Below are positions 6,756-23,520 of a stretch of DNA of 30,597 nucleotides, piece by piece. Under the pieces are notes generated by a model, which did not search any database, was not told the DNA's origin, and saw only the letters and a list, made by a program, of their open reading frames with translations. The position numbers and the translations under genes are program-made. Numbering within the stretch: the stretch's first letter is position 1; each line of letters opens with the position of its first letter. The stretch spans positions 1 through 30,597 of the forward strand of contig JANOJK010000540.1 in NCBI GenBank assembly GCA_031408165.1, given 5' to 3'. This DNA comes from Acidobacteriota bacterium. Its GTDB lineage: Bacteria; Acidobacteriota; Vicinamibacteria; Vicinamibacterales; 2-12-FULL-66-21.

Positions 6756-6757
6756 GG

Positions 6758-7699
6758 CTACCTCACAAAGTACGCGCCCGAAGGTGAGTTCGAGCCGTGG
6801 ATGGCGAGGTGACATTGCTTGCAGCCACGTTCAGTGTTGCGTGAGCTCCGGGTCACCGTGCTGCCGGGGGGCGCGACCGGCAACCCCTCGAGCGAGCTCA
6901 GGTTGTCGGCCGTCAGCCCGTGGCCGGAGAAGTGACACCGCTGGCAGAGAAACGGCGTCTTGGCCACGAGAAGCCGTTCGTGGTTCGACCCATGCGGATC
7001 GTGGCACGTCACGCACTCTTCACGCACGGGCGCGTGTTCGTAGAGGAACGGCCCGCGCTTCTCGGTATGGCACTGGTAGCACTTCTCGTTGATCGAGTTG
7101 GCCGAGATCATTTTCGGGTTGGTCCCGTCGTGCGGGTTGTGACAGCTCGAGCAGCTCATCTTCCCTTCGCGCAACGGGTGGTGAGAGGTGCGCATCGACT
7201 TGGCGCGCTCGGACTTGTGGCACGTGAAGCAGGTCTCGGGGTCGGCCGCCGTCTTCAGCTGCGCCTTCGGCGACTTGAAGCTGTGGATGCTGTGGCACGT
7301 CGTGCAGGACACGTTTCTGCGCGCGTGCATGCTGCTCATGAAGCTGGCCTGATTGTCCTTCTCGTGGCACGTCAGGCACGTGTCGTTGATCTGCTTCGGG
7401 CTCAGGCTCTTGAAGGACGGAACCGGCCCCTTTTCGCCCGCCGACTGAGTCCTGGCGTGCTCGGCGACGTCGGAGTGACAGCTCGAGCAGTTCTGTTCGA
7501 TCCGGGCGTGCTTGCTCTGCTGGAAGGTCGAGGATGGACCCACGGCCTTCTCGTGACAGACCTTGCACTCGGCAGGGTCCCATTGCCCCGGGGCTTTCGG
7601 TGGCACTGCCTGCGCGGCGGTCTGAAGGCCTCCGACCAGAGCGACGGTCCCTCCGAGCAGAAGGGCCGATACACCGAGCACGCACAGACCAAGTCGCAT
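6758..7699 (-). CDS. mtrA: MtrA/DmsE family periplasmic decaheme cytochrome c
   Basis: Signal peptide plus exactly 10 CxxCH (CKVCH, CSSCH, CLTCH, CTTCH, CFTCH, CSSCH, CYQCH, CVTCH, CQRCH, CKQCH). Family motifs EKRGPFLYEHAPV, CHDPHGS and the C-terminal IHGSNSPSG..F.R. Confidence 0.95.
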   Translation of the reverse strand: MRLGLCVLGVSALLLGGTVALVGGLQTAAQAVPPKAPGQWDPAECKVCHEKAVGPSSTFQQSKHARIEQNCSSCHSDVAEHARTQSAGEKGPVPSFKSLSPKQINDTCLTCHEKDNQASFMSSMHARRNVSCTTCHSIHSFKSPKAQLKTAADPETCFTCHKSERAKSMRTSHHPLREGKMSCSSCHNPHDGTNPKMISANSINEKCYQCHTEKRGPFLYEHAPVREECVTCHDPHGSNHERLLVAKTPFLCQRCHFSGHGLTADNLSSLEGLPVAPPGSTVTRSSRNTERGCKQCHLAIHGSNSPSGAYFVR

Positions 7700-7790
7700 A
7701 GGCAGCCTTTCCAGGCGATTGTCATCGCATCACCGACGCGTCGAACACGGCCGCGAGGCCCGGCGGACAGTGTGGGAACGGGCGCCCCAG

Positions 7791-7806
7791 AGCAACATCA
7801 GTGCCG
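7791..7806 (-). promoter_or_regulatory. Sigma54 -24/-12 promoter for mtrA-mtrB
   Basis: The minus strand reads CGGCAC-TGATG-TTGCT: GG-N10-GC, matching TGGCAC-N5-TTGC. Correct orientation, about 90 nt upstream of the mtrA start. Confidence 0.7.
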
Positions 7807-7927
7807 CCGGTCGTCATCGGATCGTTTCAGCGGGATTCAGGAAGCAATCTGCGGGACCGTCGGACCTGCGGGAAAGGCAGAGTCGGCTTTCCCAACGCGA
7901 ACAACCGGGTACACCGCGGCGCCGCGT

Positions 7928-7937
7928 CGGGAACCCG
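7928..7937. promoter_or_regulatory. Palindromic motif CGG-RAAY-CCG, copy 1 (candidate activator site)
   Basis: CGGGAACCCG in the mtrA/hypF divergent intergenic region. The same 10-mer pattern recurs upstream of three other sigma54 promoters. Confidence 0.45.
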
Positions 7938-8086
7938 TCGTCACCTGCCCCTCGACACCGCTCATGCACAGGAAGAGCATGAACAACGGGCCGGATCGCG
8001 GGCCACGCGCCGCCCCGAGCACGGGCCGATTTCCCGGGCCCGGAATCCGCCCCACCCCTCCGCGAAGTAGTCCCCCGCGCCCCCGC

Positions 8087-8096
8087 CGGAAACCCG
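8087..8096. promoter_or_regulatory. Palindromic motif CGG-RAAY-CCG, copy 2
   Basis: CGGAAACCCG within GCCGGAAACCCGGCA (8085-8099), which matches 16469-16483 at 14 of 15 positions. About 60 nt upstream of the hypF -24 box. Confidence 0.5.
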
Positions 8097-8158
8097 GCAC
8101 GGGCCCCCGATCACCCGGCCATCCACCCGTTCTGCCGCTGAAAGCGCTCCTGCCTCCG

Positions 8159-8174
8159 TGGCACCGGCCTTGCC
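8159..8174 (+). promoter_or_regulatory. Sigma54 -24/-12 promoter for the hyp operon
   Basis: TGGCAC-CGGCC-TTGCC is a near-consensus match with exact GG-N10-GC spacing, just upstream of hypF. Confidence 0.8.
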
Positions 8175-8192
8175 ACCCATCGGATCACCCTC

Positions 8193-10520
8193 GTGCGAAT
8201 TTTCCACTTCGATGAAGTCGGTCGCAGGCCTGGGGCGTCTCTCGAGGGGCGCCGCATCCTGATGCGGGGCACCGTGCAGGGCGTCGGCTTCAGGCCGTGG
8301 GTCTACCGTGTGGCGCATGCCTCGTCCGTGACCGGACGCGTGCGCAACGACACGGCGGGCGTCACCATCGAAGCGTTCGGCTCGACGGGGGCCCTCGATG
8401 GGTTCGTCGAGCGACTGGCTCACGACGCCGCCCGCCCGGCCGCTGCCGTCGTCGAACACATGACCGCGGAGGCGATCGCGTTCGAGGACGCAAAGGATTT
8501 CTCGATCGTGCCGAGCACCACCGTCGCGGACCAGTGCGTGTCGATTCCCCCGGATCTGGCGACCTGCGCCGAATGCCTCGCGGAGATCCACGACCCGGCG
8601 GACCGGCGTTACCGCTATCCGTTCACCAACTGCACGAACTGCGGTCCGCGGGTCACGATCGTCCGCGCCGCGCCGTACGACCGGCCGGCGACGACGATGG
8701 CCGCGTTCGCAATGTGCGCCGAGTGCCGGCGCGAGTACCACGACGTGGCGGATCGGCGGTTTCACGCGCAGCCCAATGCCTGTCCCGCGTGCGGGCCGCG
8801 CCTGGATCTGCGAGACGCCGGCGGCGCGCCGCGCGAGAGCGCCGATCCGATCGCGGATGCTGCGCGCGCGCTGCGCGACGGGCTCGTCGTCGCGATCAAG
8901 GGCATCGGCGGCTTCCAGCTCGCGTGCGACGCCACGTCGGACGCCGCCGTGCAGCGGATGCGCGAACGGAAGCGCCGCGACGAGAAGCCCTTCGCGGTGA
9001 TGGTCCGGGACCTCGCCGGCGCGAGGGAGATCGCCGACCTCACCGCCCGGGAGGCGAGGCTGCTGCTCTCGGTCGAACGGCCCATCGTGCTCGTCGCGCG
9101 CCGGGAGGATTCCGGTCTCGCCCCGTCGATCGCGCCGCGCAACCCGCTCGTGGGGGTGCTCGCCGCGAACTCCCCGCTCCACGACCTCCTGCTCGCGGCG
9201 GCGGGCGTGCCTCTGGTGATGACGTCCGGCAACCTGTCTGAGGAGCCCATCGCGTGCGGCAACGAGGAAGCGCTGTCCCGACTGCGGGGGGTGGCCGACC
9301 TGTTCCTCCTTCACGATCGCGAGATCGTGACGCGGGCGGACGACTCGGTGGCGCGCGTCATCGCCCGGCGACCCGTCGTGTTCCGCCGCGCGCGCGGGTA
9401 CGTGCCGCGGGCGATCGCGGTGGCGAGGGCGTTCGACGTGCCGGTCCTCGCGTGCGGCGCGCAGCTCAAAAACACGTTCTGCTTCGGCCGCGGCCACGAG
9501 GCGGTGCTGGGCCCCCATATGGGGGATCTCGACCACGTGACCGTCTTCAGCGAGTACGAGGCGGCGATCGAGCGGCTGGCGCAGTTCCTTGACGTCACGC
9601 CCGCGATCGTTGCGCACGATCTCCATCCCGACTACATGTCGACCCGCTACGCGCTCAGCCGTCCCGGCGTCGTCACCATCGGCGTCCAGCACCACCATGC
9701 CCACGTCGCCAGCGTCATGGCGGAGCACGGCCTCACCGGCCACGTGCTGGGGCTCGCCTTCGACGGCACGGGATACGGAGCCGACGGGACGGCCTGGGGC
9801 GCCGAACTGCTCCTCGCGGACTATGCAGACTTCACGCGTCTGTCCACCTTCCGGCCGCTGCCGCTCGCCGGCGGCGACACGGCGATCCGGCAGCCCTGGC
9901 GCCTCGCGCTTGCGCTCGTGGACGACGCGTTCAAGGGGGAGGCGCCGCTCGACGGGTTTCCCGTGTTCCGGGACATCCCGCCCGCAGACATCGACGTGGT
10001 CACGCGAATGATCCGCCGCGGGTTCAACGCGCCGCGGTCGCACGGACTCGGCCGGTATTTCGACGCCTTCGGCGCACTGCTGCTCGACCGCCCCCGCGCG
10101 TCGTTCGACGGGCAGATCGCCCTCGAGCTGAACATGGCGGCCGATCCCGAAGAGAAACGCCGCTACGACTACGACATCGACCAGGCCTCCACCCCGTGGG
10201 AGGTCGACCTGCGGCCGGCCGTCCGCGCTGCGGTGTTCGAGTACCTCGGCGGTGAGACGGTGGCGCGCATTGCCGCGCGCATCCACAACACCCTGGCGGC
10301 GGCGAGCATCGACATGGTGCGCGCCGCGGCCCACGTGACGGGGCGGCTGCCGGTCGTGCTGTCGGGCGGGTGTTTCCAGAACGCGCGCCTTGCAGAATCG
10401 ATCGTCCGCGGCCTCGAGCCGGAAGTCCCCGTCCACCTGCACCAGCGCGTGCCGCCCGGCGACGGCGGGATTGCGCTCGGCCAGGCGGTTATCGCCGCTG
10501 CGAAGACAAGGAGCCTGTGA
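8193..10520 (+). CDS. hypF: Carbamoyltransferase HypF
   Basis: Acylphosphatase domain (GTVQGVGFRPWVY), two zinc fingers (CAEC..CTNCGPR; CAEC..CPACGP), YrdC-like domain (IKGIGGFQLACDA, LVMTSGN), Kae1-like HHHAH and GDGGIALGQ. The exact start (GTG 8193) is less certain. Confidence 0.97.
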   Translation: MRIFHFDEVGRRPGASLEGRRILMRGTVQGVGFRPWVYRVAHASSVTGRVRNDTAGVTIEAFGSTGALDGFVERLAHDAARPAAAVVEHMTAEAIAFEDAKDFSIVPSTTVADQCVSIPPDLATCAECLAEIHDPADRRYRYPFTNCTNCGPRVTIVRAAPYDRPATTMAAFAMCAECRREYHDVADRRFHAQPNACPACGPRLDLRDAGGAPRESADPIADAARALRDGLVVAIKGIGGFQLACDATSDAAVQRMRERKRRDEKPFAVMVRDLAGAREIADLTAREARLLLSVERPIVLVARREDSGLAPSIAPRNPLVGVLAANSPLHDLLLAAAGVPLVMTSGNLSEEPIACGNEEALSRLRGVADLFLLHDREIVTRADDSVARVIARRPVVFRRARGYVPRAIAVARAFDVPVLACGAQLKNTFCFGRGHEAVLGPHMGDLDHVTVFSEYEAAIERLAQFLDVTPAIVAHDLHPDYMSTRYALSRPGVVTIGVQHHHAHVASVMAEHGLTGHVLGLAFDGTGYGADGTAWGAELLLADYADFTRLSTFRPLPLAGGDTAIRQPWRLALALVDDAFKGEAPLDGFPVFRDIPPADIDVVTRMIRRGFNAPRSHGLGRYFDAFGALLLDRPRASFDGQIALELNMAADPEEKRRYDYDIDQASTPWEVDLRPAVRAAVFEYLGGETVARIAARIHNTLAAASIDMVRAAAHVTGRLPVVLSGGCFQNARLAESIVRGLEPEVPVHLHQRVPPGDGGIALGQAVIAAAKTRSL

Positions 10521-10822
10521 TGTGCTTGGGTGTACCGGGACGGGTGGTCGAGGTGCTGGAGAACATCGCGCTCGTCGATTTCTTCGGCGTGTGCCGGCAC
10601 GTGCGTCTCGAGCTGGTCGATCAGCCGGTCGCGCCGGGTGACTACATCCTGAATCACGTGGGGTTCGCGCTGCGCAAGATTCCCGCCGAGGACGTCGAGG
10701 GCACGCTCGCCATGTACGAGCGGCTGCTCAGCGAGGCGGACGACGACCTGATGGCCGCCGATGTGCGCGGAGAAATCGCGGCCGCCGCAGCCGCCGGCAC
10801 GAAGGGCGGATCCCATGACTGA
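10520..10822 (+). CDS. hypC: Hydrogenase maturation chaperone HypC (100 aa)
   Basis: Start corrected to ATG 10520, overlapping the hypF TGA. MCLGVPGRV N-terminal Cys motif and GDYILNHVGFAL. Confidence 0.95.
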   Translation: MCLGVPGRVVEVLENIALVDFFGVCRHVRLELVDQPVAPGDYILNHVGFALRKIPAEDVEGTLAMYERLLSEADDDLMAADVRGEIAAAAAAGTKGGSHD

Positions 10823-11957
10823 TCGGGCCGCGCGTGAACTGAAGTTCCGCGATCCGGCGCGCGCGGCGGGGCTGGCGGCCGCCCTGGCGAAGGCGGTTGG
10901 AGAGATCGACCACGCGCCCGTGTCGGTGATGCACGTGTGCGGGAGCCACGAGCAGGCGATCGCCCGCTTCGGGCTGCGCTCGATGTTTCCTCCGAACCTG
11001 CACGTCATCATGGGACCCGGGTGCCCGGTCTGCATCACCGACCAGCCGGAGGTCGACGAAGCGGTGGCCCTCGCGCGGCAAGGCGTGCGCGTCGCCACCT
11101 ACGGCGACATGGTCCGCGTGCCGGGCAGCTCGGCGTCGCTCGCCGACGCGCAAGCCGAAGGCGCGCAGGTCGACGTGGTCTACAGCATCGATCAGGCCAT
11201 CGCCATCGCGCGGGGATCGGAGGCGCCGGTCGTGTTCTTTGCCACCGGTTTCGAAACCACCGCGGTGGCGACCGCCGCCGCGATCCTGGCCGGCGTGCCG
11301 TCGAATTTCTTCGTCCTCTCGGCGCACAAGTACATCCCGCCCGCGATGGAGATCGTCGCCGGAATGCCGGACTCCCGCATCGAGGGGTTCGTGGCGGCGG
11401 GCCACGCCGCCATCATCACGGGCTCGGCGGTGTTCGAGGATTTCGCGGTGCGTCACCGCGTGCCGGTGGTGGTCGCCGGGTTCGAGCCGCTGGACATCCT
11501 CGCGGCGCTCGTGCGCCTCGCCGAGCTGATCCGCGATCGGCAGTGCACCGTCGAGAACATGTTTCCGCGCTGCGTCACCCGCAAGGGCAATCTCACCGCG
11601 CAGTCGCAGCTCTGGCGGGTCTTCGCCCCGATCGGCGGCCAGTGGCGCGGCATCGCCCTGATTCCCGACGGCAACCTCCGGCTGCGCGACGAATGGGCGC
11701 ATCTCGACGCGCGGCGCCGCTTCGCGATCGATCTGACCGGCGTCGGAGACCAGCCCCCTTCAGCGCTCGCGCTGCAATGTGTGTGCGGCGACATCATGAC
11801 CGGCTTGAAATCCCCGTCCGACTGCCCCCTGTTTGGCGGCGAGTGCGTGCCGGAGACGCCCGTGGGGGCGTGCATGGTCAGCACCGAAGGCACGTGCCGC
11901 ATCTGGCACGAATACGGTGTGTCGGATCCCTTGGCCCTCGTCGGGAGAACGTCATGA
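10815..11957 (+). CDS. hypD: Hydrogenase maturation protein HypD (380 aa)
   Basis: Start corrected to ATG 10815. HVCGSHE, GPGCPVC, GFETT, and the C-terminal Fe-S cysteines CGDIMTG..CPLFGGEC..VGACMVSTEGTC. Confidence 0.97.
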   Translation: MTDRAARELKFRDPARAAGLAAALAKAVGEIDHAPVSVMHVCGSHEQAIARFGLRSMFPPNLHVIMGPGCPVCITDQPEVDEAVALARQGVRVATYGDMVRVPGSSASLADAQAEGAQVDVVYSIDQAIAIARGSEAPVVFFATGFETTAVATAAAILAGVPSNFFVLSAHKYIPPAMEIVAGMPDSRIEGFVAAGHAAIITGSAVFEDFAVRHRVPVVVAGFEPLDILAALVRLAELIRDRQCTVENMFPRCVTRKGNLTAQSQLWRVFAPIGGQWRGIALIPDGNLRLRDEWAHLDARRRFAIDLTGVGDQPPSALALQCVCGDIMTGLKSPSDCPLFGGECVPETPVGACMVSTEGTCRIWHEYGVSDPLALVGRTS

Positions 11958-12970
11958 CTGTTGCGACTCTCAACCAGCACGTCGCCATGAAGCACGGGTC
12001 TGGCGGGCGCGCGATGCGCCGGCTCATCGAGCAGGTCTTCCTGCACGACGCGAATCCCACGGCGGCCGCGATGGACGACGGCGCGGCGATTCCGATCGAC
12101 GGCGGCTGGCTCGTGATCACCACCGATTCCCACGTGATCCATCCCATCGTCTTTCCCGGCGGGGACATCGGCCGGCTGGCGGTCGCCGGCACGGTCAACG
12201 ACCTCGCGATGATGGGCGCCACCGAACCGCTCGGCCTCACCTGCGGCATGATCCTCGAGGAAGGTTTTCCGATCGAAGAGCTCGCGCGGCTGCACCAGTC
12301 GATGCTGTCCGCGTGCGAGGAGGCGGGGACGACGATCGTGGCCGGGGATACGAAGGTGATGCGGCGGGGGGAGCTGGACGGGATCGTCATCAATACCACC
12401 GGCGTCGGCATGGCGCGGCAGGTCGTCCGGGACGCCGGACTGCAGCCCGGCGACCGCATCATCGTCACCGGCACGATCGGCGATCACGGCATGGCGGTCA
12501 TGGCCGTGCGCCATCAGTTCGTGTTCGGCGAAACGCTGTGCTCGGACGTCGCGCCGCTGAACACGCTCATCCGCCGCGCGCTCGTGGCCGGCGACGGGGG
12601 CATCAGCGCGATGAAGGATCCCACGCGCGGCGGCGTGGCGAGCGCGCTGCACGAGATGGCCGCGAAATCGAAGGTGGGCATCGTGCTCGACGAACCGTCC
12701 GTGCCGGTCCGGGTGACGGTCCGCGCGGCCGCGGAACTGCTCGGCATCGATCCGCTGTTCATCGCCAACGAAGGGAAGGCGCTCATCGGCGTGCGGCCGT
12801 CGTCGGTGGACGCGGTCCTCGCCGCGCTGCGCGCCCATCCCTATGGCGTGGACGCCGCCGTCATCGGCGTGTGCGTCGCTGACCGACCGGGCTCGGTCCT
12901 GGTCGACACCGGTTTCGGCCGCCGTCACCTGTCGGAACCGGACGGCGAGCTGCTCCCGCGCATCTGTTGA
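11954..12970 (+). CDS. hypE: Carbamoyl dehydratase HypE (338 aa)
   Basis: Start ATG 11954 (ATGA overlap with hypD). HGSGG, TTDSHVIHPIVFPGGDIGRLAVAGTVNDLAM, MKDPTRGG, ANEGK and the C-terminal LPRIC. Confidence 0.97.
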   Translation: MTVATLNQHVAMKHGSGGRAMRRLIEQVFLHDANPTAAAMDDGAAIPIDGGWLVITTDSHVIHPIVFPGGDIGRLAVAGTVNDLAMMGATEPLGLTCGMILEEGFPIEELARLHQSMLSACEEAGTTIVAGDTKVMRRGELDGIVINTTGVGMARQVVRDAGLQPGDRIIVTGTIGDHGMAVMAVRHQFVFGETLCSDVAPLNTLIRRALVAGDGGISAMKDPTRGGVASALHEMAAKSKVGIVLDEPSVPVRVTVRAAAELLGIDPLFIANEGKALIGVRPSSVDAVLAALRAHPYGVDAAVIGVCVADRPGSVLVDTGFGRRHLSEPDGELLPRIC

Positions 12971-12985
12971 TCGCGAGGGACCGTC

Positions 12986-13327
12986 ATGCACGAGTACTGC
13001 ATCGTCCAGGCGCTCTACGACAGCGTGCTCGCGCAGGCGGAGGCGCGCCACGCCCTGAGCGTGCAGGGGGTGCACGTGCGCATCGGCGAGCTCTCGGGCG
13101 TCGATCCCGGGCTGCTCGCCACGGCATGGTGCCTGTTCCGGGTGCACACGATCTGCGACCGCGCGCCCATCGACGTCGAGGTCGTGCCCGCACGGTGGGA
13201 ATGCACGGCATGCGGCGCCACAGTGACCCGCGGCAGCATCCTGCGATGCCCGGCCTGCGGCGGGCGCGTGCATCTCGCCGAGGGGGACGAAATCGTGCTC
13301 AACCGCATTGTGATGGAGGTGGCGTGA
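12986..13327 (+). CDS. hypA: Nickel metallochaperone HypA
   Basis: N-terminal MHE, IGELSGV, and two CxxC motifs (CTAC, CPAC). Confidence 0.95.
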   Translation: MHEYCIVQALYDSVLAQAEARHALSVQGVHVRIGELSGVDPGLLATAWCLFRVHTICDRAPIDVEVVPARWECTACGATVTRGSILRCPACGGRVHLAEGDEIVLNRIVMEVA

Positions 13328-14058
13328 TGTGTGACTCATGCGGATGCGGTGACACGACACTGGTGCCGATCGAGGTGCAGCACCGGATTCTGTCCGAGAA
13401 CGAGCGGACGGCGGCGCACAACCGCCACCATTTCCTCGAGCGGGGGCTGCTGGCCGTCAACGTGATGGGATCCCCCGGCGCGGGCAAGACGGCGATTCTG
13501 GAAGCGACGGCGCGCGCGCTCGACGGGCGCCGCCTCCTCGGCGCGCTCGCCGGCGACCTCGCGACGGACAACGACGCCCGCCGCCTCGGCGCCGCGGGCA
13601 TCCGCGCGGAGTCGATCACCACCGGTTCGGCGTGCCACCTCGATGCCGCCATGGTGCACCGCGCGCTGCATCACCTGCCATGGACCGATCTCGAGTACCT
13701 CTTCATCGAGAACGTCGGCAATCTCGTGTGTCCAGCCGTCTACGACCTCGGGCAGGCCGCCAATGTCGTCGTGCTCGCGGTGACGGAGGGGGAAGACAAG
13801 CCGCTCAAGTACCCCGTCATGTTCCACAAGGCCGATCTCGTGCTGATCTCGAAGATCGACCTGCTCCCGCACCTCCCCGACATCAGCGTCGGCCGGATCG
13901 TGGACGCCCTCCGGCACGTGATGCCGGACCCGCAGTATCTCGCGGTCTCGGGGCGCACCGGGCAGGGCATCGACGCCTGGGTGACGTGGCTCCACGAGCA
14001 GGAGCGCCGCGTGGCGCCGGGGCAGCGCGCCGGCGCGCCGGCGCACACGCATGTCTGA
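13327..14058 (+). CDS. hypB: Nickel-insertion GTPase HypB (243 aa)
   Basis: Start ATG 13327, overlapping the hypA TGA. N-terminal CxxCGC (MCDSCGC), P-loop GSPGAGKT, ACHLDA, ENVGNLVCP, EGEDKPLKYP, SKIDLL. Confidence 0.97.
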   Translation: MCDSCGCGDTTLVPIEVQHRILSENERTAAHNRHHFLERGLLAVNVMGSPGAGKTAILEATARALDGRRLLGALAGDLATDNDARRLGAAGIRAESITTGSACHLDAAMVHRALHHLPWTDLEYLFIENVGNLVCPAVYDLGQAANVVVLAVTEGEDKPLKYPVMFHKADLVLISKIDLLPHLPDISVGRIVDALRHVMPDPQYLAVSGRTGQGIDAWVTWLHEQERRVAPGQRAGAPAHTHV

Positions 14059-14701
14059 GTCGCTGACCGGCGTCCTCGCCCTCGCGGCGGTCATCGTCGG
14101 CTCGCTGCACACGCTCGCGCCGGACCACTGGGTGCCGTTTGTGGCGCTGTCCCGCGCGCAGGGCTGGTCCCGACGGCGCGCGATCGGGATCACCTCGCTC
14201 TGCGGCTTCGGTCACGTGACGGTCTCGGTCCTGCTGGGGGTGCTTGCCCTGGTGTTCGGCGTCGAGCTGCTCGACCTCGTGGGCCGGCGCATGGCGGCGG
14301 TCGCCGGCGTCCTCCTGATCGGCTTCGGCGTCGTCTACGCGGCACTCGCGGTGCGCCGCCTGGCGGGGGAGCGCTTCCACGGGCATCACCATCGCCACTA
14401 CGATCACGTGCACGAGCCGTCGACGATGACGCCGTGGGCGCTGTTCCTGCTGTACTCCGCCGATCCCTGCGTCGCGCTGATTCCAATCCTGTTTGCCGCC
14501 GTGCCGCTCGGCATCGCGCGGACGGCGTTCATCGTCTGTGCCTACGAGGTGGCGACCATCGGGACGATGGTCGCGCTCGTGGTGCCCGCGACGGCCGCGG
14601 TGAAACGCGTCCGTCTCCCGTGGGCCGCGCGCTACGGCGATGCGGCCGCCGGCGCGGTCATCGCATCGGTGGGTGTGCTGGTCGTCATCCTCGGCTGGTA
14701 G
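14051..14701 (+). CDS. His-containing Ni/Co membrane transporter (UreH/RcnA/NicO-like); direction of transport unknown
   Basis: About 6 hydrophobic helices, TM1 motif HTLAPDHW (HAxxPDH-like), His-rich loop FHGHHHRHYDHVHE, and a PC motif (ADPCVALIP). Last gene of the hyp operon, overlapping hypB. Confidence 0.75.
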   Translation: MSESLTGVLALAAVIVGSLHTLAPDHWVPFVALSRAQGWSRRRAIGITSLCGFGHVTVSVLLGVLALVFGVELLDLVGRRMAAVAGVLLIGFGVVYAALAVRRLAGERFHGHHHRHYDHVHEPSTMTPWALFLLYSADPCVALIPILFAAVPLGIARTAFIVCAYEVATIGTMVALVVPATAAVKRVRLPWAARYGDAAAGAVIASVGVLVVILGW

Positions 14702-14815
14702 GGGAGAAGTTCGTACGAAGCGTTTCCGCTGTCGAGCGCCGATACCGCGCCAGTGGCCATGTCGCGCAGCCTGGATGCCGCTGCCGGCCTTGTCCTGGAC
14801 TCAGGATCGCGGCGA

Positions 14816-16420
14816 TCAGCCCGGCGGTTTGCCTGATACCCCAGCGTCCGGCAGGGACGATGGAGATTCCGGAGCGTTTCGCCACGCGTCGCCTGCTGGT
14901 TCCGGCTCCCGCTTGGAGCCGCGCATCGACAGTTCCTCGAAGGTTTCCTGCGCCTGGTCGCAGCCGAACCGCAGCGTCATCGTCAGGTAGTCGAGAATCT
15001 GCTGGCGCATGCCCTCAGAGGCCGGATCGCGCCTGAGGATGCGCATGCAGATCAGGTTGAGCAACTCCACGGCCCCGCAGAATTCCTCGGCCTCGAATCC
15101 CTCTTCGAATCGGCGCGCCGCGAGATCGCGGCAGTAGCTCGTGAACACCGACTTGTCGCCGGTGCGGACGGCGTTGAACAGCTGCCGCACGATCAGCCGG
15201 TGGTTCCAGTCGTGCTCCGCGGCGGCCAGGCCCTGGTAGTTTGGAAACCGCTCCTGATGGTCGGGCCCGACGAGCGCGGCGTGAAACGCGGTGAGGATCT
15301 CCGGCTCGTGCTGCTGGAGGAGCCAGTAGATCTTCAGGTAGTCCGAGATCCACACCGCCTTCATCGCCGCCTGGTTCCGCGCGATCCACTCGTGCGGATC
15401 GGTTTTCAGGTTCTCGACGAGAAACGGGACGCGCCGGAGCAGTTCCAGGCGGGGACGGGGGCTCCAGCCGAGAAGCCGCCGGGTCACCGAGGAGTCCACC
15501 CGCATCTCCCGATCGATGTAGTGCGCCATCCAGGGCCGCTCGAACGGGCGCTGTCCGGTCACGCGCCCGAGCGCGTCGAGCACCCGGATCCCGCCCCGGC
15601 ACAGCGCCTTGGGCACGTAGCGGGGCTCGCGGCGCTTGCCGTGATAGGCGAGCGTGGCCGTGCCGAACAGCTCCCGGTGTGAGACGGCGCCGTCGCTGCT
15701 GGCGATCAGCACTTCTCCCGGCGTGAGATCGCTTTCGCGTTCGAGGACCCGGCGCAGGAACGCGACCGCGTCGTGCACGTGGAGGTACGGCATGGCCGTC
15801 AGCCCCCGGCCGGCAACCACCTGGGCGTTCCAGAGCGACGACAACCACGTGTTCAGCTGCACGAAGAGCGGCGGGTATTCGCACCAGTCGGAGAACAGGG
15901 CCGCCAGCCGCACGACTGCGCTCGGAAACGCCTGCTGGTACTCGTTCAGCATGGCCTCGCCGAGGCACTTCGTGCGCGCGTAGACGTGCTGGCCGTCGGG
16001 CGGGCTCGACTCGGTCAGCGCGCGTCCGCCCGACGGGAATCTGCAGGCGGCCAGCGAGCTGGCGAAGATGAAGCGGCGCAGCGGCATGCCCGCGCAGAGG
16101 TCGAGCACGTTGCGCAGCCCGTGGACGTTGGTGCGCGTGTACTCCGGATGATCGAGGCCCGTGAAGTCGTAGTACGCGGCGAGATGCACGACATAGTCGG
16201 CGCCGCCGGTCTCGGCGATGGTGCGGAACGCGGCCTCCACCTGCGGGCGCTCGCCGATGTCCGCCTCCAGCCACGTGATGTTGGGGTCCTCCGGCACGCC
16301 GGCGCGGCGTTGCGATCGGCGCGCGATGCCGACGATCCGGTGGTCCCCCTTCAGCTGCTCCAGCAGGTGGCGCCCGACGAATCCGGACGCACCCGTGACG
16401 ATCACCCGCGGTAATGCCAT
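14816..16420 (-). CDS. Extended SDR (NAD-dependent epimerase/dehydratase) with an extra C-terminal helical domain, 534 aa
   Basis: Start corrected to ATG 16420. TGASGFVG Rossmann motif, HLAAYYD, FASS, catalytic YARTK. About 150 extra helical residues follow the SDR fold. Confidence 0.85.
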   Translation of the reverse strand: MALPRVIVTGASGFVGRHLLEQLKGDHRIVGIARRSQRRAGVPEDPNITWLEADIGERPQVEAAFRTIAETGGADYVVHLAAYYDFTGLDHPEYTRTNVHGLRNVLDLCAGMPLRRFIFASSLAACRFPSGGRALTESSPPDGQHVYARTKCLGEAMLNEYQQAFPSAVVRLAALFSDWCEYPPLFVQLNTWLSSLWNAQVVAGRGLTAMPYLHVHDAVAFLRRVLERESDLTPGEVLIASSDGAVSHRELFGTATLAYHGKRREPRYVPKALCRGGIRVLDALGRVTGQRPFERPWMAHYIDREMRVDSSVTRRLLGWSPRPRLELLRRVPFLVENLKTDPHEWIARNQAAMKAVWISDYLKIYWLLQQHEPEILTAFHAALVGPDHQERFPNYQGLAAAEHDWNHRLIVRQLFNAVRTGDKSVFTSYCRDLAARRFEEGFEAEEFCGAVELLNLICMRILRRDPASEGMRQQILDYLTMTLRFGCDQAQETFEELSMRGSKREPEPAGDAWRNAPESPSSLPDAGVSGKPPG

Positions 16421-16433
16421 CGGCCACCATGTG

Positions 16434-16449
16434 TGCAAGGCCCGTGCTG
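16434..16449 (-). promoter_or_regulatory. Degenerate sigma54-like promoter facing the SDR gene
   Basis: The minus strand reads CAGCAC-GGGCC-TTGCA. The -12 box and spacing are correct and it resembles the hypF promoter, but it has AG in place of the normally invariant GG. Confidence 0.3.
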
Positions 16450-16470
16450 ACCCCGCTGGCCCGGGCCTGC

Positions 16471-16480
16471 CGGAAATCCG
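16471..16480. promoter_or_regulatory. Palindromic motif CGG-RAAY-CCG, copy 3
   Basis: CGGAAATCCG within the perfect 6-bp-arm inverted repeat TGCCGG-AAAT-CCGGCA (16468-16483), between the divergent SDR and radical SAM genes. Confidence 0.5.
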
Positions 16481-16512
16481 GCATCCCTCTCGGGACGACC
16501 CGTTTTTACACC

Positions 16513-16528
16513 CGGCATCCCCCTTGCG
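16513..16528 (+). promoter_or_regulatory. Sigma54 -24/-12 promoter for the radical SAM / cytochrome operon
   Basis: CGGCAT-CCCCC-TTGCG with GG-N10-GC spacing. It matches the BON promoter at 14 of 16 positions. Confidence 0.7.
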
Positions 16529-16540
16529 ACGAATGCGCAT

Positions 16541-17776
16541 ATGGCGCTCAACGCGTGCGAGCTCGAAATCGATCTGTTCTGCCTGGGCTTGCGGGTCCCC
16601 GCCGAGCTGTCTCTGGACGGCGCTCGCGGGATCTCCCGCACGCGCGCCGGCCTTGGTTCCGGTTTGGAGATCGTGATCCGCTCGACGTCGTGGCTGAAGC
16701 GCGAGATCTGGATGAACGCACCCGTCGCGGAGCCCTTCGCGGCACGCTCGCCGTACGTGCTCGAGTCGAGCCCGGCAGGCGGCTATTCCGTGCATGACGA
16801 CCGTGACGGCCACCGCTACCGCGTGGACCTGCCCCCGGCGCCGGCGTGGTACCGGCGTCACACGTCCCGCGACGTGCCGATGTCGCGCATCGGCGTGATG
16901 CAGGGCACCTACCTCGGCATCTACATCAATCCCGTCTGCGCGTTCTGGAATTACCGCCCCGCGCTGAACTGCGGCTTCTGCACGACCGGCCAGAACGTGG
17001 GCGGCCACGAAGCCGCGGTCAAGACGGTCGACGACGTCGTCGAGACGTGTCACGCGGCGAAAGGTGCGGGCGTCACCTTCGTGCACTTCAACGGCGGCTT
17101 CCAGGGCACGCGCGGCCTGCGCGCGGCGGAGCCGTACGTGAAGGCCGTGAAGGAGAAGGTGGGGCTGCTCGTCGGCCTGCAGCTCACGCCGGAGCGCGAC
17201 TTCACCGCGTACGATCGGCTCATCGATCTCGGCGTCGACCACTTTTCGTTCTGCCTGGAGCTGTTCGACCCGGAGTGGTTCGCGCGCGTCTGCCCGGGCA
17301 AGGCGCAAGTGCTCGGACAGAACCTGTTCCTCGAGGCGATGGACTACTGCGCGGCGCGGATGCCGCGCGGCGCCGTGTCGGGGGAGATCATCGCCGGCAT
17401 CGAGCCGATCGCGAACACGCTGGCGGCCATCGAGCGCATCACCTCGGTGGGGGCGTTTCCCACCGTGTGCGTGTTCCGTCCGACGGTGGGATCCGACATG
17501 GAGGACTGGCCACCGCCGGCCTACGACGACATGCGGCGCGTGCTGGCGGCCGTGTACGACGCCTGTCGTCGCCACCGCGTCCCGATCGGCCTCGCGCCGA
17601 ACATCGAGGTGAGCCTGGTCGTGAACCCCGATGACGCGGCGCTGCTCGCGCCGCGGACGGCGGCGATGTTCGCATACGAGGCGTGGCGGCGCGTGGCGCG
17701 GCTCGCGGCGCGGCCGGTGTTCGCGCGGCGCATGCGGCCCCGGGGGGGCACGCGCCCATCGGCCAGCGCACGGTAA
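16541..17776 (+). CDS. Radical SAM protein with atypical CX10CX2C cluster motif; function unknown
   Basis: VCAFWNYRPALNCGFC is followed by TIM-barrel-like segments (HFNGG, GVDHFSFCLE, IIAGIEP, VCVFRP). There is an N-terminal extension of about 130 aa. Confidence 0.85.
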   Translation: MALNACELEIDLFCLGLRVPAELSLDGARGISRTRAGLGSGLEIVIRSTSWLKREIWMNAPVAEPFAARSPYVLESSPAGGYSVHDDRDGHRYRVDLPPAPAWYRRHTSRDVPMSRIGVMQGTYLGIYINPVCAFWNYRPALNCGFCTTGQNVGGHEAAVKTVDDVVETCHAAKGAGVTFVHFNGGFQGTRGLRAAEPYVKAVKEKVGLLVGLQLTPERDFTAYDRLIDLGVDHFSFCLELFDPEWFARVCPGKAQVLGQNLFLEAMDYCAARMPRGAVSGEIIAGIEPIANTLAAIERITSVGAFPTVCVFRPTVGSDMEDWPPPAYDDMRRVLAAVYDACRRHRVPIGLAPNIEVSLVVNPDDAALLAPRTAAMFAYEAWRRVARLAARPVFARRMRPRGGTRPSASAR

Positions 17777-17789
17777 TTCCGGAGGCACC

Positions 17790-17987
17790 ATGGTAGACAG
17801 AGAAAAAGTACTGACCGTCCTGACCCGCCGGTTCCCTGACGCGAGGCCCGATCAGGTCGCCGCCGCCGCGAATGCCATCGTCGGGCTCGAGGACGAGTGG
17901 GAGGACGTGACCGAAGTGGCGCAGCCGGGTGGCCGGGCTGATGAGGTCCGCGTCTTCAGTCGCCGGACAGCCGGCGGCGGCAGGTGA
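17790..17987 (+). CDS. Small hypothetical protein (65 aa)
   Basis: Strong SD (GGAGG) 4 nt before ATG 17790. MVDREKVLTVLTRRFPDARPDQVAAAANAIVGLEDEWEDV... fills the gap after the radical SAM gene. Confidence 0.7.
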   Translation: MVDREKVLTVLTRRFPDARPDQVAAAANAIVGLEDEWEDVTEVAQPGGRADEVRVFSRRTAGGGR

Positions 17988-18088
17988 CAACATTCCCCGG
18001 CCGTGACAGAATGCAGCCGGTCCTTCGCAATAGCCGCCGGAACGCGCCTGACGCCGCTGATAGTCCCCGCCTGGCCACTCGGTTGACC

Positions 18089-18343
18089 ATGAGCCCAGTC
18101 GGCTTGGCATTGAATGAGCGTTTCGAGATGGTGTGCCGGAGCGAGCTCGTGCGTCTCCGGCGGAAGACCGCGTCACTCAGCCCCGAAGATCGGGCCAGCG
18201 TCGATGCGCTGACGCTCGAGTTGGCCCGGCGGCTTGCGGTTCGTCTGGACGCTGCGCTCCAGGGACCAGGCAGTGCGGGCCTCGCGCCCGTCCTGATGCG
18301 CCTGTTCGCCGTCTCGCCACCTGCTTTGGAGGAACGCTTATGA
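18089..18343 (+). CDS. Small helical protein resembling the glutamyl-tRNA reductase (HemA) C-terminal dimerisation domain; start uncertain (17984, 18011 or 18089)
   Basis: LNERFEMVCRSELVRLRRKTASLSPEDRASVDALTLELARRL...LMRLFAV follows the recalled GluTR C-terminal pattern (LR..FE.IR..EL.RL..KL..LS.E.R..VD.LT..LV.KL...L..LF.L). The stop overlaps the cytochrome c ATG, whose SD lies within this ORF. Confidence 0.55.
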   Translation: MSPVGLALNERFEMVCRSELVRLRRKTASLSPEDRASVDALTLELARRLAVRLDAALQGPGSAGLAPVLMRLFAVSPPALEERL

Positions 18344-18687
18344 AACGTGTGTTGATTGGAACCCTTGCGGCGCTCGCGCTGGCGGCGTTCGCTGCCCCGG
18401 CGTCAGCTCAAGACGCGAGACTGGACAAGGGCGCGAAGGTCTACGCCGAACAGAAATGCATGATGTGCCATTCGATCGCCGGCAAGGGGAACGCCAAAGG
18501 GGCGCTGGACGAGGTGGGCACGAAATTGACGGCCGAGGAAATCCGCCAGTGGATGGTGGATCCGGTTGCCATGACGGCCAAGCACAAGGCGGTCCGCAAG
18601 CCCCCGATGCCCGCGAAGTTCAGCGCGCTGCCGAAGGACGATCTGGACGCGCTCGTCGCGTACCTGTCCTCGCTGAAGAAAAAGTAG
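18340..18687 (+). CDS. Periplasmic class I monoheme cytochrome c (115 aa)
   Basis: Start corrected to ATG 18340 (GGAGG upstream). Signal peptide ending ASA-Q, CMMCH, distal Met in KPPMP, and DLDALVAYLSSL. Confidence 0.93.
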   Translation: MKRVLIGTLAALALAAFAAPASAQDARLDKGAKVYAEQKCMMCHSIAGKGNAKGALDEVGTKLTAEEIRQWMVDPVAMTAKHKAVRKPPMPAKFSALPKDDLDALVAYLSSLKKK

Positions 18688-18745
18688 ACGCACCGGCGCC
18701 GGTCATCGAGCGCTCCACTGACTCGCGGACCACGCGGAGGGCACG

Positions 18746-20065
18746 ATGAAGAGCCGAGGCGCGATCGCCACACTGATCCTGATCTGGGGGCTCGCGCTGA
18801 CGATGTCGGCGCGGGCGCCGCAACCCGCGCCCCCGTCGCGGCCGGTTGCGCGCGCCGCGGCGCCTGCCGCCGCGCCCACCCCCGCGCCCACCGCGGAGGA
18901 CTGCTTCACCTGTCACGAGGACGCCGAGCTGAAACGGGCCAACGGCACCGCCGTGACGGTCAGCAAGCCGGCCTTCACCGCCTCGGTGCACGGCCCGCTC
19001 GCGTGCGTCGACTGCCACGCGGACCTCGCGAAGGCGGAGCTTCCGCACCCCGAGACACTGGCGAAGGTCGACTGCGCGTCGTGTCACGCCGAACCGGCGG
19101 CGCTCTACAAGCAGAGCGTCCATGCCGCCGCGCGCGCGGGCGGCAACACCGTCGCTGCCTCCTGCGCGAGTTGTCACGGCATCCACGATATCCGCGGCGG
19201 CAAGGACCCGCAGTCGCGCACCTACCACCTCAACATCGCGGCGACCTGCGCCGCGTGCCACGGCAACCAGGACGTCATCCTCAAGGGGCGCATCGGCAGC
19301 GGCGACGTGGCGTCCCCGTTCGCCGACAGCATTCACGGCCAGGCGCTCAGCCGGAGCGGGCTCCTGGTGGCGCCGACGTGCAGCAACTGCCATGGGCCCC
19401 ACGACATCCGGAAGAAATCGGATCCGGCGAGCCGCGTCGCCCTGGCCAACGTCCCGGCGACGTGCGGGGCGTGCCACGAAGGCATCTCGAACCAGTTTGC
19501 CGGCAGCGTGCACGCCACGGTGCTGGCGAGGGGGCTCGGCGGGGTGCCCGCGTGCCAGACCTGCCACACGTCGCACGCCATCCAGCAGGCCGGCAATCCG
19601 CGGTGGCAGCTCACCGTGGTGAACCAGTGCGGCTCGTGCCACGAGGACAAGCTGAAGACCTATCGGGACACGTTTCACGGACAGGTGACCAACCTCGGGT
19701 TCCGCACGGTGGCGGCGTGCGCGGATTGCCACGGCAATCACCGGATCCTGCCGGCGCGCGATCCGGCGTCGCCGATCCACCCCACGAACCTGGTCGCCAC
19801 CTGCGGGAAGTGCCACACGAACGCGAGCGCGAATTTCGTGAAGTACGACCCGCACGCCGACAAGGGGAACCGGGAGCGGAACGCCGCGTTGTACTTCGCG
19901 GCGAAATCGATGAAGTTCCTCCTGTTCGGCACGTTTGGATTCTTCGGCCTGCACACGGTGTTGTGGCTGCTGCGAGGGCTCCAGGAGGGCCGGACCGCGC
20001 CGCCGGCGAAACCCCCGAGGGAGCCCGAGGAGAAGCCCGAGGGAGAAGAGAAGATTGATGAGTGA
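18746..20065 (+). CDS. Membrane-anchored 11-heme cytochrome c (CbcL-like cytochrome c module)
   Basis: Signal peptide, Pro/Ala linker, 11 CxxCH motifs with the repeating S.HG / H.I distal-ligand pattern, and one C-terminal TM helix (LLFGTFGFFGLHTVLWLL). Confidence 0.9.
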   Translation: MKSRGAIATLILIWGLALTMSARAPQPAPPSRPVARAAAPAAAPTPAPTAEDCFTCHEDAELKRANGTAVTVSKPAFTASVHGPLACVDCHADLAKAELPHPETLAKVDCASCHAEPAALYKQSVHAAARAGGNTVAASCASCHGIHDIRGGKDPQSRTYHLNIAATCAACHGNQDVILKGRIGSGDVASPFADSIHGQALSRSGLLVAPTCSNCHGPHDIRKKSDPASRVALANVPATCGACHEGISNQFAGSVHATVLARGLGGVPACQTCHTSHAIQQAGNPRWQLTVVNQCGSCHEDKLKTYRDTFHGQVTNLGFRTVAACADCHGNHRILPARDPASPIHPTNLVATCGKCHTNASANFVKYDPHADKGNRERNAALYFAAKSMKFLLFGTFGFFGLHTVLWLLRGLQEGRTAPPAKPPREPEEKPEGEEKIDE

Positions 20066-20893
20066 GCTCGCCCCCGACGCCGCACCCGAGCGGCACGTGC
20101 TGCGGTTCGACCGCCTCGATCGGACGCTCCACGGGTTCCTGATGCTCAGCTTTCTGGGCCTGGCGGCGACCGGCCTGCCGGTGCTGTTCAGCGACGCCCC
20201 GTGGGCGCCGCGCATGGCGCGGGTGCTCGGTGGCTACACCGTCGTCCACCTGATGCACCGCGTGTTCGCGACGGTCATGATCGGGGTGTTCTCCGTGCAC
20301 GTGTGGCGCCTCGTCACGCGCGTGGCCATCCGAAAGGACTACGGCATCTTCTGGGGGCCGCGATCGATGGTCCCCCAGCCGAAGGATCTCGCCGACATGT
20401 ACGGCCACTTCCGATGGTTCCTGGGGCTCGGCCCCAGGCCGGCGTTCGACCGGTTCGCGTACTGGGAGAAGTTCGACTACTGGGCGGTGTTCTGGGGGAT
20501 GGCGATCATCGGCGGGTCCGGCCTGATGCTGTGGTTCCCCGAGGCGTTCGCGCGCGTGCTGCCAGGCTGGGTCTTCAACATCGCGCTGCTGGTGCACGCC
20601 GAAGAGGCGCTGCTGGCCGCCGGTTTCATCTTCACCATCCACTTCTTCAACAGCCACCTGCGGCCCGAGAAGTTCCCGATGGACATGGTCATCTTCACCG
20701 GCCGCGTGACGGAGCGGGAGCTGCAGGTGGAGCGGCCGGCGGAATACGCGCGGCTGGCGGCGGCCGGGCCGCTGCCGGATGCGGGGCCTCCCTCCGCCCG
20801 CGTGTGGATGGCCGGCCGCGTGATAGGCTCCGCCGCAGTGATTCTCGGCCTGGCGCTCGTCGGATTGATCCTCTACGCGGTAGCCCCTCACCT

Positions 20894-20897
<4 letters not shown>
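20058..20897 (+). CDS. Di-heme cytochrome b, FdnI/HydC type (CbcL-like cytochrome b module), 279 aa
   Basis: Start ATG 20058, overlapping the upstream stop. TM histidines (TLHGF, LMHRVF, LVHAEE, TIHFFNSH) and the motifs FDRFAYWEKFDYWAVFWG and HLRPEKFPMD. Confidence 0.88.
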
Positions 20898-22240
<1,343 letters not shown>

Positions 22241-22334
22241 GAAGGTCAGGCAGCGGGACGATCACGACGGCTCACGGCTCATCACGAAGTGTTCGTGGCC
22301 CTGGTGAGCTTCGTATGATTTCCGTGTGACGGGC

Positions 22335-22790
22335 TCAGCCCTCCGCGGTCAGCGTGATCGCATTGGAGACGCCCCGCACGCCGGCGAGATACTTCACCGC
22401 GTTCTCCGCTGCGGCGCGCTGGTGCATCCAGTGGACGGTGCCGCCGAGCGTGATGAAGCCGTCGCTCACGACCGCCTGCACCCCCTCGGGAATGGCCACG
22501 TTGTTGCGCAGCCGGTGCAGCGCGTCCCGTGCGATATCGGTGTCGGTGCGCTCGTTGGGCGTCTTCACGTGGAGATCGCTCGCCACGCTCCTGACGCCGC
22601 GCACGAGCATGACGGCGCGCTCCGCGGCCACTTTCATCGCCAGCGAGTCCACCCGGCCCGTCAGCGTGACCACGCCGTCCTCGGCGGCCACGCCGATCTC
22701 CCACTCGTGGACGGCGGGATCCCGATCGATTGCGGCCAGCGCCGCGTCGCGCAGAATCTCACACCCCGGGGGGGCCACTGCATAGACCAT
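22335..22790 (-). CDS. Dual-BON domain protein (151 aa) with no signal peptide
   Basis: Start corrected to ATG 22790 (AAGGAG upstream). Two BON repeats: GVVTLTGRVDS...GVRSVASDL and GFITLGGTV...GVRGVSNAI. Confidence 0.9.
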   Translation of the reverse strand: MVYAVAPPGCEILRDAALAAIDRDPAVHEWEIGVAAEDGVVTLTGRVDSLAMKVAAERAVMLVRGVRSVASDLHVKTPNERTDTDIARDALHRLRNNVAIPEGVQAVVSDGFITLGGTVHWMHQRAAAENAVKYLAGVRGVSNAITLTAEG

Positions 22791-22823
22791 GGTCGTCTCC
22801 TTCTGACTGTATGGCCCCGCTAT

Positions 22824-22839
22824 CGCAAGGGGGCTGCCA
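22824..22839 (-). promoter_or_regulatory. Sigma54 -24/-12 promoter for the BON gene
   Basis: The minus strand reads TGGCAG-CCCCC-TTGCG with GG-N10-GC spacing. The predicted start site near 22813 leaves a leader of about 23 nt that contains the SD. Confidence 0.72.
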
Positions 22840-22882
22840 TCGCGGCCCCCCATGGAAACCCGCGCCGATCTCGCCGGCCCGC

Positions 22883-22892
22883 CGGGAACCCG
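22883..22892. promoter_or_regulatory. Palindromic motif CGG-RAAY-CCG, copy 4
   Basis: CGGGAACCCG, identical to copy 1, about 45 nt upstream of the BON -24 box. Confidence 0.45.
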
Positions 22893-22922
22893 TAAACGAG
22901 GGTCCCGCGCGTCGGCAAGCTG

Positions 22923-22941: not shown

Positions 22942-23520
22942 ATGGCCTCCGCGCCCTCGCGGCTGATCCTGGCGTCCGCGTCCCCCCGCCGCGCCGAGCT
23001 CCTCACGTGGGCCGGCTATGCGTTCACGGTCGAACACGCCAACGTGGATGAGTCGGTCTGGCCGGCGGAAGAGCCGGCGAACTACGTGCTCCGTGTCGCG
23101 CGGGCCAAAGCCCATGCAGTCGCCGCGAGGTGCCGGGAATCCGGCAGCACGGTCCTGGCGGCTGATACGACCGTCGTCGCCGGCGGTGAAATCCTCGCAA
23201 AACCGGCCGACCGGGACGACGCCGTTCGCATGCTGAAACGGCTTGCGGGCGTGGTCCATGAGGTCCTGACGGGCGTGGTGGTCGTCTCCAGGGGCCAGGA
23301 AATGGCCGAGGTGGTGCGGACCCGGGTACACCTTTTGCCCCTCAGTCCGGAAGAGATTTCCTGGTACGTCGATACGGGTGAGCCGGACGGGAAAGCCGGC
23401 GCCTATGGCATCCAGGGCCGGGCGGCGCGGTTCGTGGACTGGATCGAAGGGTCCTGGTCGAACGTGGTCGGGCTGCCGGTCGCGACCGTAGAACAGATGC
23501 TCAAGAGACTTGGCGCGTAG
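22942..23520 (+). CDS. maf: Maf family nucleoside triphosphate pyrophosphatase (YhdE-like), 192 aa
   Basis: Start corrected to ATG 22942. LILASASPRRAELL, ADTTV, ILAKP, KAGAYGIQG and NVVGLP. Confidence 0.93.
   Translation: MASAPSRLILASASPRRAELLTWAGYAFTVEHANVDESVWPAEEPANYVLRVARAKAHAVAARCRESGSTVLAADTTVVAGGEILAKPADRDDAVRMLKRLAGVVHEVLTGVVVVSRGQEMAEVVRTRVHLLPLSPEEISWYVDTGEPDGKAGAYGIQGRAARFVDWIEGSWSNVVGLPVATVEQMLKRLGA

Follow-up and report, generated by a model that had tools for sequence, protein, structure and literature searches.

The DNA analysed here (the window) is the whole 30,597-nt contig JANOJK010000540.1 from an Acidobacteriota bacterium. It carries five copies of the palindromic 10-mer CGGRAAYCCG, which forms the middle of a longer, 16-bp dyad, TGCCGG-N4-CCGGCA, whose centre is A/T-rich. 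The dyad is conserved and is linked both to σ54-type −24/−12 boxes and to one family of bacterial enhancer-binding proteins (bEBPs); judged from its distribution among genomes, it is a genuine and previously undescribed motif and a putative enhancer of a known general kind. It probably serves as the upstream activating sequence of a single σ54 regulon in the order Vicinamibacterales, and would be bound by a bEBP of the type encoded on contig C773 of the same genome. The source of the window, as contig C847, is a fragmented metagenome-assembled genome (G000; 1237 contigs, 5.35 Mb, 67.5% G+C, 86.5% complete). Relatives were retrieved with one protein of this genome, and all belonged to the Vicinamibacterales, Acidobacteriota.

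A sequence-only reading of the window had noted the 10-mer at 7928, 8087, 16471 and 22883, and all four exact matches were located there; a fifth copy, at 23134 inside maf, had been overlooked. The same reading had expected less than one copy by chance, and shuffled sequences agreed (0.68 expected, with the observed five reached by 0/100 shuffles), but the density across the genome made the excess merely suggestive: 130 copies in 5.35 Mb predict 0.74 per window, for which the Poisson P is about 1e-3, or about 0.2 once corrected for 175 windows of this kind. Most copies of the 10-mer (97/130) were coding, with 25% intergenic against a baseline of 15%, and only 8/130, four of them in the window, had a σ54 box 25 to 160 nt downstream, which is inside the range of control 10-mers. 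The 10-mer was therefore rejected as a regulon marker. All five copies in the window read RAAY, not RTTY, on the + strand, while two of the promoters served lie on the − strand; this shared orientation is probably meaningless, since chance alone would give it once in 16.

Listing longer matches of the 10-mer revealed the dyad, and the extension GCCGGAAAYCCGGCA that had been claimed for two copies was correct at 8085 and 16469. The comparison of intergenic with coding DNA, which had been proposed as a check and in which the 10-mer was mostly coding, came out differently for the 16-mer: 11 of its 16 exact copies in the genome were intergenic, about 12 times the coding density (baseline 15% intergenic). 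These tallies are approximate because the in-house gene caller is crude and mis-calls some starts, stretching for example the BON gene across its own promoter. Among all 4096 perfect 6-N4-6 palindromes the dyad ranked second by intergenic copies. Intergenic sites with at most one mismatch numbered 28, whereas 59 permuted-arm palindromes of the same composition averaged 4.8 and never exceeded 13, leaving about 23 sites beyond chance in a genome that is 86% complete; in the same comparison there were nine exact copies of the 16-mer and none of the controls. Dyads occurred in tandem about 30 bp apart on contigs C1169, C773 and C750, and on either side of divergent promoters on C750, on C773 and at 16468 of the window. 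The palindrome that ranked first is an unrelated family resembling repetitive extragenic palindromic (REP) elements, with the core CCGACC-TTCA/TGAA-GGTCGG and conserved flanks (ccagttggc...gcgtg). It has 46 copies, 38 of them intergenic and often paired about 50 to 70 nt apart (e.g., C73:4802 and C294:254), and none in the window.

Within the window, the putative activating site of the hypFCDEAB promoter is the dyad CGCCGGAAACCCGGCA (8084–8099, one mismatch), which starts 75 nt before the σ54 −24/−12 box TGGCACcggccTTGCC (8159–8174, + strand). The perfect dyad TGCCGGAAATCCGGCA (16468–16483) is situated between a divergent epimerase-family gene and a radical-SAM/cytochrome operon, 45 nt before the σ54-like box CGGCATcccccTTGCG of that operon (16513–16528, + strand). 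A second perfect dyad, TGCCGGGAATCCGGCA (23131–23146), is part of the coding sequence of maf and precedes the σ54 box TGGCAGcccccTTGCG of a BON/OsmY-like gene (22824–22839, − strand) by 307 nt, and is probably a strong distal site for that promoter; a degenerate proximal site, CGCCGGGAACCCGTAA (22880–22895, three mismatches), stands 56 nt before the same box. The fourth σ54-like box, CGGCACtgatgTTGCT (7791–7806, − strand), is upstream of mtrA-mtrB and is preceded at 134 nt by the degenerate site CGTCGGGAACCCGTCG (7925–7940), which has four mismatches to the 16-mer and an intact 10-mer core. All four boxes thus have a copy upstream, as had been claimed, but those at 7928 and 22883 are degenerate. 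The distance of 60 to 150 nt given for them also stood, with roughly 150, 92, 63 and 73 nt between the site centres and the expected starts of transcription. The two weaker variants read as described (CGATTTCCCG at 8027–8036 and CGGAATCCG at 8041–8049), and are probably not sites, as they either differ from the 16-mer at four positions or are wrongly spaced; the second also falls in the gene relic at 8041–8070. The box of the radical-SAM operon ends only 13 nt before the ATG at 16541 and the encoded protein is conserved from residue 1 in orthologues, so that the transcript would have almost no leader; in G009 the corresponding box is placed 120 nt further upstream.

The genome encodes an rpoN DNA-binding domain (on C802) and about 35 bEBP (Sigma54_activat) genes. 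Six of the 28 intergenic dyads had a σ54 box 30 to 140 nt downstream, compared to 3.3% of random intergenic positions (P = 2.6e-4), and the association persisted with the window left out (4/26, P = 0.01). We then searched 101 Vicinamibacterales genomes for a composite of GCCGG-N4-CCGGC followed, after 15 to 160 nt, by TGGCAY-N5-TTGC, and found 46 occurrences against five for a reversed control, an enrichment of about 9-fold. Co-occurrence with −24/−12 boxes, which had been named as a further check, was thus borne out for the 16-mer both in this genome and among its relatives. Composite spacings were mostly 44 to 130 nt and clustered at about 44–45, 55–56, 74–79, 85–88, 95–97, 107–109 and 120–130 nt. 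Their periodicity peaked at 10.5 to 10.75 bp, with P = 0.14 when identical spacings were collapsed, so helical phasing is suggestive only.

Conservation in orthologous promoters was clearest upstream of hypF. We aligned eight upstream regions, from four genera of one family and from a second family, and the only conserved blocks were the dyad and the TGGCA-N6-TTGC box, whose TGGCA and TTGC were invariant in 8/8. The canonical dyad was present in six genomes and a symmetric variant in two; dyad and box were 75 to 76 nt apart in five genomes (including G009, G005, G022 and G023) and 96 nt apart in G025. The two variants, in G007 and G013, were other perfect or near-perfect dyads (TGCGGACTAGTCCGCA and CGCGGAAACTTCCGCG) in the same place and at the same distance from the box, sharing only the outer TGC-N10-GCA with the canonical form. 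Both arms had changed symmetrically, as expected for a site read by a dimer. At the radical-SAM promoter, the box was kept in five same-genus genomes and the dyad was likewise found in five genomes, preceding the box by 44 to 45 nt in G006, G009 and G005 and by 65 nt in G007. The BON box was kept in G003, G009, G005 and G007; its proximal site was degenerate in all orthologues, 26 to 65 nt away and weakly conserved. The site inside maf was conserved in four genomes, and its arms were kept in G003, G005 and G009 (one mismatch), where they stand at −300 to −353 relative to the start of BON. The arms stayed constant among orthologues while centre and flanks varied, and the centre changes were non-synonymous in the maf frame (CRESG, CRKSG and CRIPG, translated by hand). 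That the arms are kept while the centre changes alter the protein argues for selection on the DNA. The weak mtrA site had a counterpart in one orthologue, the closest (G023), in which CGTCGGAAATCCGCCT lies 129 nt before a σ54-like box.

The most likely binder of the dyad, on genomic association, is a family of bEBPs of about 350 amino acids, with members on C773, C243 and C787 of this genome and none encoded in the window. The C773 protein (positions 3793–4866, 357 amino acids) consists of an AAA+ domain, a lid and an HTH_8 helix-turn-helix (HTH) only, with no sensor domain. Its own promoter has a σ54 box and two or three dyads; hemN-hemH is divergent from it, and downstream are a radical-SAM gene and a second mtrA-mtrB pair with its own box and dyad. 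Around 80 orthologues of this bEBP (58 to 83% identity) we counted 71 dyads in 644 kb, where about 15 were expected; by a hand tally, about 27 of the 71 were within 400 nt before the bEBP gene, and in the closest orthologues they stood 55 to 135 nt before a σ54 box. Presence of the dyad also tracked presence of the family (members called at E ≤ 1e-90; dyads counted as exact TGCCGG-NWWN-CCGGCA, i.e., A/T-centred): the 41 genomes with a member had 101 dyads (2.5 each), the 60 without had 32 (0.5 each), and copies of the reversed control numbered nine in either group. At least two dyads occurred in 26 of the former and five of the latter, an odds ratio of 19 over the 101 genomes with kinship uncorrected. 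A comparison of coordinates often placed composite matches near a family member, within 10 kb in several cases. In G017, seven of eight exact dyads fell in one 108-kb stretch that includes hypF, a radical-SAM gene, BON, two mtrA genes and both bEBP paralogues.

The paralogue on C243 is 61% identical and is fused to a degenerate NifU-like N-terminus, and that on C787 (171–1400) is preceded by a separate gene for a 58-aa NifU-like protein (C787:1397–1573). The C787 bEBP has a normal AAA+ domain and an arginine-rich C-terminus without an HTH, which is probably a frameshift arising from assembly error or a pseudogene. The recognition helix KRSTLGDR was identical in all paralogues and orthologues examined. 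In 60/80 loci a gene for a NifU/Nfu-like protein of roughly 58 amino acids was directly beside the bEBP gene, either co-directional and just upstream or divergent. These proteins all had an intact CxxC (TGMCAGCPSA or TGNCVGCPSA), with N-terminal fusion to the bEBP in a minority. The NifU-like protein may be a sensor or partner of the activator.

From these associations we infer binding of the bEBP to the dyad, activation from it and a controlling signal. A bEBP dimer would recognise the dyad with its C-terminal Fis-type HTH, dimers on one or several dyads would build the active AAA+ ring, the DNA would loop to the −24/−12 promoter 45 to 135 nt (sometimes about 300 nt) downstream, and ATP hydrolysis would open the σ54 closed complex. 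The proposal of the sequence-only reading that the palindrome is an enhancer site was thus supported for the 16-mer by its distribution, by conservation in orthologues and by co-occurrence with −24/−12 boxes. Several observations weigh against it. A recognisable σ54 box was near only about 6 to 10 of the roughly 23 non-chance sites in this genome; none was found near the sites before the malic-enzyme and B12-radical-SAM genes, and widening the search to 400 nt gained no further dyad sites. Some spacings are short for looping: 45 nt in the window, and elsewhere 25 to 26 nt or overlapping the −24 box. In distant bEBP loci (L087–L139) with nifU-bEBP operons the dyad is only 25 to 26 nt before the box, and in some such operons the right arm of the dyad doubles as the −24 element (e.g., TGCCGGAAATCTGGCAcgccgGTTGCC); a protein on a dyad that touches or covers the −24 box would occlude the promoter, and autorepression fits this layout better than activation. 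The variant dyads of G007 and G013 were not accompanied by any HTH change that would account for them, the recognition helices of the bEBPs being unchanged. Two or more dyads also occurred in five genomes that lack a family member at E ≤ 1e-90; completeness was 74 to 86% for two of the five. The sites at 7925–7940 and 22880–22895 differ from the 16-mer at three to four positions, and cross-genome counts were taken over related genomes as they stand, with shared ancestry uncorrected.

Those two degenerate sites raise the possibility, somewhat doubtful in our judgement, that the placement of a copy at every promoter is partly chance and that only the dyads at 8084, 16468 and 23131 are functional. 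In that case the mtrA promoter would share the hypF dyad, at a distance of 280 nt, and the dyad in maf would serve the BON promoter. Besides their mismatches, the abundance of the 10-mer in coding DNA fits such an arrangement, as does the proximal BON site, which is unconserved in sequence and position. Chance alone would place a 10-mer in a given 120-nt promoter-upstream stretch with a probability of only about 0.003 (estimated from genome density), and the G023 mtrA orthologue shares the degenerate form CGTCGG-AAAT-CCG, which is almost as far from its box (129 nt) as in the window (134 nt).

It is quite unlikely that the dyad is instead the operator of an ordinary dimeric factor other than a bEBP, such as a CRP/FNR-like or other redox regulator, with an indirect σ54 association. 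Boxes of the CRP/FNR family read TTGAT-N4-ATCAA and are centred near −41.5 or −61.5 of σ70 promoters. Their two arms and 4-nt centre give the same 6-N4-6 geometry, and the predicted targets are typical of anaerobic regulons, hydrogenase, PFOR (pyruvate:ferredoxin oxidoreductase) and hemN being targets of FNR-type regulators elsewhere. More than half of the sites in this genome lack a clear σ54 box, and some copies lie 25 to 45 nt from the box or 40 to 70 nt from the start codon, all of which such a factor would accommodate. Against it, the spacing between dyad and box is fixed in orthologous promoters, the composite is enriched about 9-fold, and dyads both crowd before one bEBP family and follow that family across genomes; no candidate regulator other than a bEBP was seen adjoining the sites. 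We did not assign the dyad to the CRP/FNR boxes, since its arms are TGCCGG/CCGGCA, its sites are upstream of σ54 boxes at enhancer distance, and no σ70-like promoter was found in 7650–8250.

A structural element (a terminator, REP-like hairpin or RNA stem-loop) is very improbable: the dyad can fold as a 5- to 6-bp G+C stem with a 4-nt loop, the hypF copy directly follows the stop codon of the upstream gene in G009 and G005, and the genome does contain an unrelated REP-like family, but there was no T-tract or terminator-like match, folding energies were barely better than those of shuffles (z of 0 to −2), flanks were not repeated as they are in a mobile repeat, one copy is conserved within a coding region, and at least seven sites in this genome are between divergent genes with none in a clearly convergent gap.

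If the dyad is the activating sequence of a σ54 regulon, the genes that it precedes appear to form an energy programme for hydrogen and low oxygen. The predicted regulon comprises a Hyb-type uptake hydrogenase, hypFCDEAB, two mtrAB pairs, the radical-SAM/cytochrome operon and BON, together with PFOR, a 2-oxoacid:ferredoxin oxidoreductase, hemN-hemH and the gene of the activator itself. On C750, a Tat-dependent Hyb-type [NiFe] hydrogenase operon (small subunit, HybA-like, HybB-like, large subunit and protease) is divergent from PFOR, and the gap between them (C750:7200–7480) holds one exact and three degenerate tandem dyads. This gap has a σ54 box on the hydrogenase side and, on the PFOR side, a near-box in which GA replaces the invariant GG. 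The 2-oxoacid:ferredoxin oxidoreductase gene on C1169 has two dyads 30 bp apart. Other dyad-linked genes in the genome encode a malic enzyme, a B12-radical-SAM protein, a xanthine-dehydrogenase-family protein, a CusB-like protein and a small multihaem cytochrome.

The gene map of the window was built from Pfam and NCBIfam matches. On the − strand it begins with thrA (448–2922), a GFO/IDH oxidoreductase gene (3034–4371), mtrB for an MtrB/PioB porin (4458–6815) and mtrA for a DmsE/MtrA-type decahaem cytochrome (6758–7699); after a 493-nt gap (7700–8192) follow hypF-C-D-E-A-B on the + strand (8193–14058, with a GTG start codon of hypF at 8193). The epimerase-family gene (14816–16420, − strand) is separated by 120 nt (16421–16540) from the radical-SAM operon (16541–22240, + strand), in which a variant radical-SAM gene is followed by cytochrome c, cytochrome b and NapC-like genes. 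The BON/OsmY-like gene (22335–22790, − strand), maf (22942–23520, + strand) and ccm genes (23557 onward, + strand) complete the map. A hidden gene in 7700–8192 was ruled out, as tblastx and blastn against orthologous upstream regions gave no coding similarity. The sole match in this gap was a relic of the last eight codons of a lost neighbour gene (8044–8070); 8041–8070, the remnant 3′ end of that upstream gene, reads NPPHPSAK-stop, and the gene before hypF in G009 ends NPPHPSAH-stop. The junction between mtrAB and hypF (7700–8040) was specific to the window genome, and mtrAB has therefore moved beside hypF by rearrangement.

Members of the Vicinamibacterales abound in soils, and most have yet to be cultured. 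The motif offers a sequence-level handle on one regulon in an order for which no transcriptional wiring was found in the searched literature. Such a regulon would tie a Hyb-type hydrogenase and its maturation to MtrAB-type electron conduits of the outer membrane, ferredoxin-linked oxidoreductases and oxygen-independent haem synthesis. The motif predicts which genes respond together, supplies a testable candidate activator and could be used to annotate the regulon in hundreds of metagenome-assembled genomes. It also leads to an unstudied combination, that of a domain-less bEBP and a small NifU-like protein, the latter being a possible sensor. We tentatively postulate, while regarding it as rather unlikely, that the pair forms a new type of σ54-activator switch, in which an Fe-S cluster on the 58-aa NifU-like protein would report oxygen, redox or iron status and the protein would gate the sensor-less activator at TGCCGG-N4-CCGGCA enhancers. 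If so, widespread soil Acidobacteria that are usually regarded as aerobes would use the switch to turn on H2 uptake, extracellular electron transfer, PFOR and oxygen-independent haem synthesis.

The palindrome had not been recognised as a known operator, and comparison with known systems bore this out: it belonged to neither the NifA nor the CRP/FNR sites, and our literature searches gave no account of the motif, a NifU-linked bEBP or a σ54 regulon in Acidobacteria. NCBIfam names for the bEBP were rejected, all matches being far below model cut-offs. The nearest likeness in site architecture is to NifA, whose upstream activating sequence is TGT-N10-ACA, and to NtrC, with sites of the form TGCACC-N5-GGTGCA: all are dyads of 16 to 17 bp, bound (in the present case by prediction) by a Fis-type HTH dimer of a bEBP, about 60 to 150 nt upstream of a −24/−12 promoter and often in tandem. 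The outer triplets are laid out as for NifA, but read TGC-N10-GCA rather than TGT-N10-ACA. The candidate activator scored 326.6 bits against a cut-off of 528.85 for NifA and 319.4 against 558.6 for NtrC, and has no GAF or receiver domain, its predicted targets are hydrogenase and cytochrome genes and not nitrogen genes, and the site sequence differs; on site, score and missing GAF domain, the dyad was not counted as a NifA upstream activating sequence. In its architecture the candidate resembles PspF and HrpR/HrpS, which are likewise AAA+ plus HTH proteins of about 330 to 360 amino acids with no N-terminal sensor, and shares with them an apparent self-regulation. It scored 273.5 bits against the PspF cut-off of 443.55, and its neighbour is a NifU-like protein, with no pspA-like or hrpV-like partner seen. 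In predicted function the closest parallels are HoxA/HupR, which control [NiFe] hydrogenase genes in Cupriavidus, Rhodobacter and Bradyrhizobium, and FhlA, which controls hyc/hyp in Escherichia coli; HoxA and FhlA act through σ54. HoxA/HupR are response regulators of an H2-sensing two-component system with TTG-N5-CAA-type sites, and FhlA senses formate via a large N-terminal domain. Like them, the candidate is an NtrC-family activator with a palindrome, to which it is predicted to bind, upstream of hydrogenase and hyp operons; it differs from them in having no sensor domain, in its usual NifU-like CxxC partner and in a predicted target set that includes mtrAB, PFOR and hemN.

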